This document shows, piece by piece, positions 8,973-43,289 of a stretch of 64,000 bases of DNA (within the stretch, counting starts at the first letter, position 1; every line of letters starts with the position of its first letter). The DNA is from Enterobacteria phage vB_EcoM_IME341. The stretch lies in the sequence record MH051917. One strand, written 5' to 3'. The notes under the pieces were generated by a model. That model was not told where the DNA came from and did no database searches. It saw only the letters and a program-made list of their open reading frames with translations. Made by a program: the position numbers and the translations under genes.

Positions 8973-9030
8973 TATGCTTTAAGAATAGCGTGTTATTATT
9001 AATCTATCAACAAAACAATATGGATTAAAT

Positions 9031-9354
9031 ATGGAACTTCCTATTAAAGCGGTCGGAGAATATGTTATTCTCGTTTCCGAACCAAAACAAGCTGGTGATG
9101 AAGAAACTACTGCATCTGGTATCGTTATTGGTAAACTTCACCAAGGTGAAATCCCTGAACTTTGTGAAATTTATTCTGTAGGACCTGATGTCCCTGAAGG
9201 TTTTTGTGAAGTAGGCGATTTGACTCCACTTCCTGTTGGTAAGATTGCTAACGTGCCTCATCCGTTGGTTGCATTGGGTATTAAGCAGCCTAAAGAAATT
9301 AAACAGAAATTCGTTACCTGCCACTATAAAGCAATTCCTTGCTTGTATAAATAA
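9031..9354 (+). CDS. 31: Gp31 co-chaperonin (GroES-like) for capsid protein folding
   Basis: 107 aa; near-identical to T4 gp31 over [22 protein letters not shown]...PELC...[21 protein letters not shown]...[32 protein letters not shown]. Confidence 0.95.
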
Positions 9355-9492
9355 AATTACGAAGAGGTTGATGTCATACAGAACTTCGGTTGGTGTATGG
9401 GGTTAGCCTCTTCCATACGGCGAGATACAACTCAGCTGGAAATACTGAGACGAACGTGCTCGCCAATCTTTATCTCGAATTGAGAAGCTAAA

Positions 9493-9741
9493 ATGAACAA
9501 ACAACTGAATCACGCTCTTGAACTGCAACGCAACGCTTGGAACAACGGTCACGAAAACTACGGCGCATCTATTGATGTTGAAGCCGAAGCACTGGAAATC
9601 CTGCGTTATTTCAAACATCTGAATCCGGCTCAGGCTGCTTTGGCTGCTGAACTGGAAGCTAAAGATGAACTGAAATTTGCTAAGCCTTTGGCTTCAGCAG
9701 CTCGTAAAGCAGTACGTCATTTTATTATTACCCTGAAGTAA
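9493..9741 (+). CDS. rIII: rIII lysis-inhibition accessory protein
   Basis: 82 aa; matches remembered T4 RIII (MNKQLNHALELQRNAWNNGHENYGASIDVEAEALEILRYFKHLNPAQ...). Confidence 0.85.
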   Translation: MNKQLNHALELQRNAWNNGHENYGASIDVEAEALEILRYFKHLNPAQAALAAELEAKDELKFAKPLASAARKAVRHFIITLK

Positions 9742-10004
9742 AATCGAGGAGCCGTCGAATTGTCTGATTATCGATTTACGAATCGGTATGTTTTAGAAGT
9801 ACCGCCCCGACAATTTTACGGTGTACCTCTTGAATGTATTTTGTACTATCACGCGTCAGAAAAAGGTTATCTGTCTAAGCCGTGGTTGGTATGATGACGA
9901 GGTTTATGGTTATCCTGTCGTTAAATATCCGAAACCTATGTTCCCCTTGAGGGCTTGCGCAGGCAACGCCAATAAGTCCTGCATTCTAATTTAAGAGATT
10001 TAAA

Positions 10005-10166
10005 ATGGCTAAGAAAGAAGTTAAAGTAGTTGACGGTACCTCTAAACGCGCTGGTTACAAGCGTGCGTCCAACAAGCGTATCGATCAGGTAGTTGATAAG
10101 CTTCAAGCTCGTGCTCGTGCGGTATTGCGTGCAGATGCTGCTTGCTTTGGTAAGCCTCAGGCATAA
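10005..10166 (+). CDS. Small basic protein (53 aa), not in the ORF track
   Basis: ATG with AAGAG Shine-Dalgarno; MAKKEVKVVDGTSKRAGYKRASNKRIDQVVDKLQARARAVLRADAACFGKPQA; followed directly by a terminator hairpin. Confidence 0.45.
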   Translation: MAKKEVKVVDGTSKRAGYKRASNKRIDQVVDKLQARARAVLRADAACFGKPQA

Positions 10167-10171
10167 GTTAT

Positions 10172-10199
10172 GGGACTCTTCGGAGTCCCATTTTTGTTT
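10172..10199 (+). terminator. Rho-independent terminator
   Basis: GGGACTC-TTCG-GAGTCCC hairpin followed by ATTTTTGTTT. Confidence 0.75.
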
Positions 10200-40962: not shown

Positions 40963-41390
40963 TAGTTAAGTCCAAAGGCTTTACGTTTAGAACGAGCTTT
41001 TTTACGCTTACGTTCAGCACGTACTTGAGTAGACGGATTAGCACGTTTGGTTTTAGATGCTTTGCGAGCAATCTGACGGCGTTTTGCTTTAGATAACCCA
41101 GTCGTTTGATAAGCATTGCGTTGACGGGTTTTAATATCTTTAGTACGAGTAAGCTCACCTTTAGAGGAGACATGCTTAACGATAAATTCGTTAAGAGCCA
41201 TATTTTCATTCAAAGAAGCAATGGCAATAGCTGTATCGATATCACCATCAGCAATCATGTTCTCTACAAGATTATTTATATCGCTTTTCTCGAGTGCTTC
41301 AGAAAGAATAGCAAAACGTCCCTGTGCTTCTAGAATTTTGGCCTCTACGCTTTCAAGAGTTAATTCGTAATCATCAGGGATAAGGAACAT
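40962..41390 (-). CDS. 68: Prohead core protein gp68
   Basis: 142 aa (T4 141 aa); basic C-terminus; ATGA overlap with gene 21. Confidence 0.75.
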
Positions 41391-43233: not shown

Positions 43234-43281
43234 TAGAGTCTCCGATGAATGGGATAAGGAGCCGAAGCTCCTTGATAATTC

Positions 43282-43289
43282 TATTTATA
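43282..43289 (-). promoter_or_regulatory. Late promoter for gene 20
   Basis: TATAAATA on the minus strand, about 49 nt upstream of the gp20 start. Confidence 0.5.

Follow-up and report, generated by a model that had tools for sequence, protein, structure and literature searches.

The spacer between gene 31 and the lysis-inhibition gene rIII of Enterobacteria phage vB_EcoM_IME341 (sequence record MH051917) is filled with inverted repeats, which raises the question of whether it forms a functional RNA and, if so, what such an RNA would do. The DNA analysed here is a stretch of 64,000 nucleotides (nt) from this record (the window), and the structured region, positions 9355-9492, is the entire gene 31-rIII spacer. 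A first-pass annotation made from the letters alone had offered three options for it, namely a processing site, an attenuator, or a small structured RNA that controls rIII. The part of that proposal that stands is a functional structured RNA tied to rIII expression, supported by covariation and by its location directly upstream of the rIII ribosome-binding site; the attenuator part is weak, as the window has no proper U-tract. On balance, and with moderate confidence, we regard the spacer as a conserved cis-acting leader of rIII and trailer of gene 31 in T-even-type phages which would set the stability and translation of rIII mRNA.

As + strand RNA the spacer folds at -47.7 kcal/mol (z -4.2 to -4.5), a stability reached by 0-1 of 200 dinucleotide shuffles, and the minus strand is less stable (-35.7 kcal/mol, z -2.75). 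The following features make up the locus, with hairpins numbered from 5′ to 3′ (HP1 to HP3).

9346..9353, + strand: exact T4-type late-promoter box TATAAATA, read from the sequence, overlapping the gene 31 stop codon (9352-9354)
9359..9360, + strand: predicted 5′ end of the late rIII transcript (A9359), placed from the promoter box, with two unpaired nt before HP1
9361..9413, + strand: HP1, a 53-nt nested hairpin (-27.8 kcal/mol, z -7.2, RNA folding)
9414..9418, + strand: linker CAUAC, 5 nt, single-stranded
9419..9464, + strand: HP2, a 46-nt interrupted hairpin (-14.3 kcal/mol, z -2.9, RNA folding)
9465..9472, + strand: AU-rich single-stranded tract AAUCUUUA between HP2 and HP3
9473..9485, + strand: HP3, UCUC-GAAUU-GAGA (-2.2 kcal/mol, RNA folding)

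In HP1 a basal stem of 12 bp, including three G.U pairs, is followed by a middle stem of 7 bp and a tip of 3 bp under a C(UUCG)G tetraloop, which together make an almost continuous duplex of ~22 bp. The nested inverted repeats reported in the first-pass annotation are all present within 2-3 nt of where it had placed them, and RNA folding returns the same nesting. The AAC-UUCG-GUU tetraloop hairpin lies at 9382-9391 inside HP1, together with TCATACA (9374-9380) and TGTATGG (9394-9400). The GAAGAGG...CCTCTTC repeat is real but had been put at about 9364-9411; its arms, which form the basal pairing of HP1, occupy 9361-9367 and 9407-9413. In HP2, an outer stem of 6 bp (GGCGAG 9419-9424 with CUCGCC 9459-9464) is separated by the internal loop AUACAA / ACGAACGUG from an inner stem of 5 bp (CUCAG 9431-9435 with CUGAG 9445-9449), which is capped by the 9-nt tip CUGGAAAUA. 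The tract behind it begins with AA and has 4 U among its 8 nt. The 3′ arm of HP3 is the rIII Shine-Dalgarno sequence (GAGA/GAGAAG), 8 nt before the AUG. HP3 with its Shine-Dalgarno sequence, the late-promoter box at 9346-9353 and the presence of the element in T4 go beyond what the annotation had recorded.

Conservation was assessed in 47 distinct spacer sequences, comprising IMG/VR loci found with RIII and GenBank phages (T4, RB69, JS98-like, IME523, CJ20). One layout is common to 42 of the 47, including T4, RB69 and JS98: TATAAATA, 5 or 7 nt, HP1 (12-53 nt), a linker of 4-6 nt, HP2 (19-67 nt), 8-10 AU-rich nt, HP3 and the AUG. Its holders are Tequatrovirus (T4), Mosigvirus (RB69), Dhakavirus, Gaprivervirus, Kanagawavirus (IME523) and T4-like Klebsiella and Enterobacter phages (Roth78, PG7), and the 147-nt spacer of T4, which has this layout, is at least 99% identical across 494 records. 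A hairpin stands at the HP1 position in all 42 parsed relatives. The linker keeps its 4-6 nt in all relatives and is chiefly UAAGC, UAUGU or UAUAC, and the base of HP2 is GC-rich and usually begins with GG. Within this frame the stem sequences are diverse with pairing retained, both at the base of HP1 (GAAGAG, GGAUUG, GAAUUG, GUAAUC, GUAAGA, GAAC) and at the base of HP2 (GGCGAG, GGUGGAC, GGUAGCC, GGUAGUC, GGAAGGC, GGAGAUA, GAUGCA). An anti-Shine-Dalgarno/Shine-Dalgarno hairpin is found in 27 of 27 distinct stem sets, as CCUC/GAGG in 21 and as UCUC/GAGA in 6, a change on both sides, and GAGG or GAGA lies in HP3 7-9 nt before the AUG in all relatives with a secure start codon. The AU tract has 3-6 U in the first 8 nt after HP2, a count that may extend into the start of HP3; some lineages have a genuine U-run (UUUUAU) here, the window does not.

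The first-pass annotation had proposed covariation analysis across related phages as a check, with a lack of compensatory changes as the outcome that would speak against it; the compensatory changes found are strong. Across the basal stems of HP1, HP2 and HP3 in 27 distinct sequences, 96.7% of cells pair versus 75.6% in shuffles, a percentage inflated by anchoring the stems on per-sequence minimum-free-energy folds. In the same stems 92 cells carry a change on both sides versus 25 expected, a number reached by 0 of 500 shuffles, and pairing falls to 35-47% when the partner is slid by 1-3 columns. The basal stem of HP1 shows double compensatory changes at 4 of its 6 pairs. Two alignments are free of the anchoring bias. 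RNAalifold, given 12 real, untrimmed HP2-HP3 sequences, independently returns HP2 and HP3 with 8 of 22 pairs compensated, and one outer-stem position of HP2 in its alignment takes AU, CG, GC and UA. An ungapped 60-column alignment of nine real HP2 domains pairs at 96.3% versus 82.5% when shuffled and ~40% when slid. The basal stems hold 13 G.U cells and 0 A.C cells, which points to RNA of the + strand rather than to the opposite strand or DNA.

The position of the hairpins relative to the promoter is also fixed. We take the late start to be the 6th nt after TATAAATA, as we assume for T4 late promoters, and on this assumption HP1 starts at +3. In T4 late promoters an 8-bp TATA box precedes the start by about one helical turn, and an AT-rich segment that becomes melted comes after the box (PMC2988020); such an AT-rich segment is present here too (AAATTAC in the window, ATAATAT in T4). 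The box is present in 44 of the 47 distinct relatives, always 5 or 7 nt ahead of the first paired base of HP1. The gap keeps one of these two lengths in 42 of 42 parsed sequences although HP1 itself spans 12-53 nt, and if the RNA starts at the 6th nt after the box, every one of the 42 would have an overhang of 0 or 2 nt before HP1. The distance from the gene 31 stop codon to the box varies among relatives, the two overlapping, abutting or lying up to 11 nt apart with the box downstream. Since the gap from box to HP1 is fixed while the distance from stop to box is not, HP1 is positioned relative to the promoter and not relative to gene 31. Among the 16 TATAAATA sites in the window, the rIII site has by far the strongest 5′-proximal hairpin (-28.1 kcal/mol); the next strongest reach -13.3 kcal/mol (at +2 of a minus-strand site at 41280, an unconfirmed promoter) and -10.3 kcal/mol, and most sites have none. 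Late leaders are for the most part short and open.

In T4, rIII reportedly has promoters of all three classes, early, middle and late (PMC9409239). In the window, a scan for promoters and terminators returned no + strand sigma-70-like promoter in 9300-9500 and no + strand terminator-like site in the spacer. A MotA middle promoter at TGCTTG (9340-9345) was considered and rejected, the spacing to any TAnnnT being by our reading ~6 bp and not 11-13.

Two observations concern the predicted starts of late RNAs. In most relatives the predicted late rIII RNA opens exactly with AUG (e.g. T4 L029 917-919; L numbers are our own handles), which would give a leaderless mini-ORF (open reading frame, ORF) of 2-16 codons whose peptide is not conserved; a coding role for this AUG is unlikely because the predicted start is ACG in the window and GUG or GUA in others. 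Elsewhere in the window, at ~43250-43289 on the minus strand, TATAAATA is followed at +4 by an AAGGAGC-UUCG-GCUCCUU hairpin (-10.3 kcal/mol) that holds a GGAG-type Shine-Dalgarno sequence and is the sole other compact 5′-proximal stem-loop among the window TATAAATA sites.

These features suggest how the leader and trailer could work. Late transcription from the box would begin at ~9359, and the late RNA would fold with HP1 2 nt from its 5′ end, followed by HP2, the AU tract and HP3, in which the Shine-Dalgarno sequence would pair with its anti-Shine-Dalgarno. The 5′-terminal HP1 would shield late rIII mRNA from 5′-end-dependent decay (RppH / RNase E), against which a terminal hairpin with no more than 2 nt of overhang is a classical safeguard. 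In longer transcripts reading through from gene 31, HP1 and HP2 would be 3′ barriers that guard the much-needed gene 31 mRNA against 3′ exonucleases after cleavage of the downstream portion, so that the gene 31 part would outlive the rIII part. HP2 may be recognised through its conserved loop by a partner, HP3 and the AU tract would set the rate of rIII translation initiation, and the net outcome would be a tuning of the amount and timing of RIII.

The arrangement invites comparison with known systems. Emory, Bouvet and Belasco reportedly showed in 1992 that a 5′-terminal stem-loop preceded by at most 2-4 unpaired nt stabilises E. coli mRNA, and Newbury et al. are said to have found in 1987 that intercistronic hairpins bring about differential stability within operons. 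With the ompA-type 5′-terminal stabilising stem-loops the rIII leader shares a stable hairpin 0-2 nt from the (predicted) 5′ end, with free sequence and conserved pairing; it differs in that its 5′ end is a predicted one, a second, sequence-specific domain follows, and the unit is polycistronic. With the malE-malF REP (repetitive extragenic palindromic) element it shares two stable hairpins that directly follow a highly expressed gene (31) and precede an accessory gene of low abundance (rIII), an AU tract lying behind them, but the rIII leader is single-copy, is no REP-type repeat and carries a promoter, which makes it a 5′ leader as well. The leaders of T4 e (lysozyme), soc, gene 49 and I-TevI likewise come from a T4-type phage and combine a late promoter near a hairpin with a Shine-Dalgarno sequence in a hairpin arm. 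There, however, the hairpin has its 5′ arm upstream of the late start, which leaves the late RNA open. HP3, by contrast, lies wholly past the predicted start at 9359, its 5′ arm (9473-9476) by 114 nt, and would form in every class of transcript. PeSL cassettes are multi-copy elements of hyperplastic regions in which a sigma-70 early promoter comes after a terminator stem-loop (Arbiol 2010; Comeau 2014; PMC4122927). The rIII leader resembles them as a composite of promoter and stem-loop in a T4-type genome with modular exchange between related phages, but it is single-copy, its late promoter stands before the hairpins and there is no + strand sigma-70-like site; identity with PeSL was rejected, with no sigma-70 promoter in 9300-9500 and no multiple copies. 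By analogy, the leader would work most like 5′-terminal stabiliser hairpins combined with intercistronic stabiliser hairpins. It belongs to a familiar class, that of structured leaders and intercistronic regulators, and one of its hairpins comes from a candidate new domain.

If the element merely stabilises mRNA, it is an ordinary and neat example of a known principle. Its interest lies also in the gene that it precedes, since rIII is a classic lysis-inhibition gene and the leader, with its 5′-terminal clamp, sequence-specific domain and Shine-Dalgarno hairpin, offers concrete sites to mutate when post-transcriptional control is tested in T4. Apical modules found on HP1 in one phage occur on HP2 in another, and none is repeated elsewhere in its genome, for which reason the shuffling looks like recombination between homologous leaders and not like transposition. 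The exchange of hairpin tips on fixed stems shows T-even regulatory RNA evolving by cassette swapping.

The element is single-copy. No second copy of the spacer was found in the 64-kb window, HP1 of the window type occurs only in IME08, MX01, AnYang, C6 and ABTNLsp5, once per genome and always in this spacer, and a repeat or multi-copy mobile element was rejected on these grounds. The pattern of another module, M_a, was not found in the window.

Several points weigh against a leader and trailer acting on stability and translation. The transcription start at 9359 comes from the promoter consensus, and the supplement of a T4 differential RNA sequencing preprint has no entry for the gene 31-rIII region. 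At -2.2 kcal/mol HP3 is a weak hairpin whose influence on translation could be close to neutral, and a pure stability role leaves the invariant loop of HP2 unexplained. The anchoring of the basal stems inflates their percentage of paired cells, as said above, and folding energy does not separate the strands across relatives, the + strand being the more stable in only 27 of 42. In more distant phages (L075, L080, L086) the late promoter is preceded by a canonical terminator and followed by only a weak AU hairpin, and therefore the three-hairpin design is not universal. In the literature searched there is no description of these hairpins; Nivinskas and Black 1988 and Raudonikiene and Nivinskas 1992 may mention them.

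A side observation concerns distant T4-like phages. In L075, L076, L080, L086 and L028 a canonical GC-rich terminator is followed by TATAAATA, a weak AU-rich hairpin straddling the late start, and rIII; the full straddling hairpin would form only in read-through transcripts.

The loop that a stability role leaves unexplained belongs to a structured domain including HP2 that we have named M_g. Its long form, in HP2 of T4, RB69, JS98 and Gaprivervirus, has three tiers: a covarying outer stem with an internal loop, a 5-bp stem, and a distal stem that carries a bulged G and ends in a GAAA tetraloop. The asymmetric internal loop is invariant, with UACAA on the 5′ side and A[A/C]GAACGU on the 3′ side (in its fuller form (C/A)UACAA / A(A/C)GAACGUG). 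Window HP2 retains the outer stem, the loop and the 5-bp stem, the last flipped from G-C to C-G (CUGAG/UUCAG in long forms, CUCAG/CUGAG in the window), and has the 9-nt tip in place of the distal GAAA arm; L078 has a comparable short version. The covariance model R1, based on the long forms, has a sole match in the 64-kb window, at 9419-9464 (31.3 bits, E 1.6e-5). Rfam 15 holds no family matching the spacer, either in the window (E up to 10) or in eight relatives including T4 (E up to 1), the scans giving only sub-threshold chance matches, all outside the spacer. HP2 is a shortened copy of the M_g domain, itself a candidate new phage RNA motif that matches no Rfam family.

By blastn, M_g is found in 829 phage records, in exactly one place each. 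It sits in one of two alternative slots, before rIII or before gene 30.9, ~25-35 nt from the start codon, and in both slots it is followed by an AU-rich tract and then by anti-Shine-Dalgarno/Shine-Dalgarno pairing. In Klebsiella and Enterobacter phages and others (L061-L063, L067, L068, L072-L074, L078, L085, Roth78) it is absent from the 31-rIII spacer and stands before 30.9, ~230-330 nt downstream of rIII and ~35 nt before the gene 30.9 start. M_g may have moved during evolution between the two hairpin slots. A pattern scan of IMG/VR with CTACAAC...GAACGTG returned at least 120 mostly unrelated contigs; it was too unspecific and was not used.

As observations on the slots themselves, each genome examined has M_g in only one of the two. 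The gene 30.9 slot (window 9943-9982; L089 20640-20711; L061-L074 ~1170-1336) reads CCCCUUGAGGG, CUUGC and then a hairpin, which in the window and in T4 is a different one, GCAGG...CCUGC (window 9959-9982). In the JS98-type L044/L047, the base of HP1 (5′-UAUGG...CCUAAG-3′) is a classical 11-nt GAAA-tetraloop receptor and the tip of HP2 is a GAAA tetraloop. A link between tetraloop and receptor is unproven; such flanks also accompany non-GNRA loops, and both features are missing from the window.

Together, the invariant loop and the distribution of one copy per genome over two slots point to recognition by a specific partner. We suggest, tentatively and at low confidence, that M_g is a previously undescribed structured domain, perhaps a protein- or ligand-binding translational operator, present as a single copy in >800 T-even-type genomes. 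RIII with ribosomal protein S1, the basic gp30.9 or a small ligand could be the partner. Should the operator reading be true, lysis-inhibition control would be linked to an RNA sensor.

In an alternative explanation, either a discrete stable RNA of ~105 nt (promoter, HP1 and HP2) or a processed HP2 would act through the HP2 loop on the adjacent downstream gene, whether by binding a phage or host protein in the manner of an operator or by sensing a ligand. We consider this explanation rather unlikely. In its favour are the invariant unpaired nucleotides (UACAA / A[A/C]GAACGU) held between covarying stems and found once per record before rIII or 30.9. By our own reading of its sequence, gp30.9 is a small and strongly basic protein. 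RIII has recently been found to bind ribosomal protein S1 and to damp RegB (PMC9409239), and the S1 binding counts for this explanation too. Against it, no conserved sequence complementary to the invariant loop lies nearby, Rfam has no match, the window copy is without the distal GAAA arm, and many relatives carry quite different apical modules in the same slot. We know of no partner, ligand or discrete RNA species for the HP2 domain.

Termination is the next alternative, and we judge it unlikely. HP2 and the U-rich tract would end gene 31 transcripts as an intrinsic terminator or attenuator, a fraction of the polymerases would reach rIII, and promoter-derived transcripts stopping at HP2 would be a by-product. 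HP2 does resemble Rho-independent terminators in having a GC-rich basal stem and then a U-containing tract, and the slot is terminator-like in several relatives (L059 GUCUACC-UUUUAUU, L072 CUCCACC-UUUUAU, L078 CUCCACC-UUUUUAC, L069 GCCUUCC-UUUUAUU), where a U-run of at least 5 in 8 nt is found in L059, L069 and L073 (6/8) and in L072 (5/8). The distant phages L075, L080 and L086 have a canonical terminator between gene 31 and rIII. In the window the tail starts with AA and has 4 U in 8 nt where a U-run would have at least 5 in 8, beginning 0-2 nt after the stem, and neither HP2 (46 nt, long and interrupted by two internal loops) nor HP1 (53 nt) is a compact hairpin with a loop of 3-8 nt. The terminator scan flags neither of them on the + strand, yet it finds the terminator at 10170-10191. 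HP2 also lies downstream of the late promoter of rIII itself; in other phages M_g directly precedes gene 30.9, and a terminator would have no need of its invariant internal loop.

Processing by an endonuclease, with RNase III cutting at the HP1 stem or RNase E/G at the AU tract to separate gene 31 and rIII mRNAs, appears quite improbable. The almost continuous duplex of window HP1 would suit it, as would an AU-rich single strand between hairpins, the usual RNase E context, and T4 mRNAs are processed by the host RNases E and G (PMC3014915). In RB69, L072 and L081, however, HP1 has just 4-6 bp, a length below what RNase III needs, and, judged by eye, AAUCUUUA departs from the RN|WUU preference of RNase E. 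Finally, the idea that the repeats have no RNA function, being DNA-level palindromes (cruciforms, recombination scars) or chance in an AT-rich, insertion-tolerant spacer, fits the near-equal folding of the two strands in many relatives and the recombination-like shuffling of apical modules between hairpins and phages, but it is hardly credible given pairing kept by compensatory changes across very different sequences, the G.U over A.C excess favouring + strand RNA, the fixed spacing to promoter and Shine-Dalgarno sequence, and the near-identity of the 494 T4-type records. The genes on either side of the spacer are the following.

9031..9354, + strand: gene 31, GroES-like head-assembly co-chaperonin (Pfam Cpn10, E 7e-7; PHROG 931 'head morphogenesis', E 3e-50)
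9493..9741, + strand: rIII, lysis-inhibition accessory protein of 82 aa (PHROG 1457 'lysis inhibition; accessory protein', E 4e-43)

These matches agree with the flanking genes named in the first-pass annotation. The gene 31 counterpart is annotated as gp31 in IME08, C6 and MX01, and its final codons TAT AAA TAA make up the late-promoter box. The rIII product is up to 99% identical to IMG/VR Dhakavirus-like contigs and is named rIII in the closest phage records. Over ~9000-9800 the window is 97-98% identical to Dhakavirus phages C6, ABTNLsp5, MX01, AnYang and IME08 and ~77% identical to T4; judged by its sequence, it is Dhakavirus DNA (IME08/C6-like).

The spacer does not code for protein. The annotation had found no ORF longer than about 11 codons, which holds for ATG starts (the longest has 11 codons, with its ATG at 9371) but not for TTG or GTG starts, for which a mechanical ORF list gives two, one of 33 aa at 9390-9491 (+) and one of 30 aa on the minus strand. 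Neither of these is preceded by a Shine-Dalgarno sequence, and a 1-nt deletion in IME08 falls inside the 33-aa TTG ORF and breaks its frame. The spacer is therefore non-coding.

Downstream of rIII, two further features were noted. The 263 nt between the rIII stop and the next ORF at 10005 (window 9742-10004; T4 L029 1300-1543) are by eye more conserved with T4 than the neighbouring genes, fold at -66 kcal/mol, show a compensatory change (GUCGAAUUGUC...GACAAUU in the window vs GUCGAACUGUC...GACAGUU in T4) and have no Rfam match; they may be a second structured RNA. Directly 3′ of the gene 30.9 homologue lies a textbook intrinsic terminator (10170-10191, +), ATGGGACTC-TTCG-GAGTCCCAT followed by TTTTTGTTT. 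With no + strand sigma-70-like promoter or terminator-like site in the spacer and this terminator after the next gene, genes 31, rIII and 30.9 look like one unit with internal signals, and 10170-10191 is probably the end of the 31-rIII-30.9 transcription unit.

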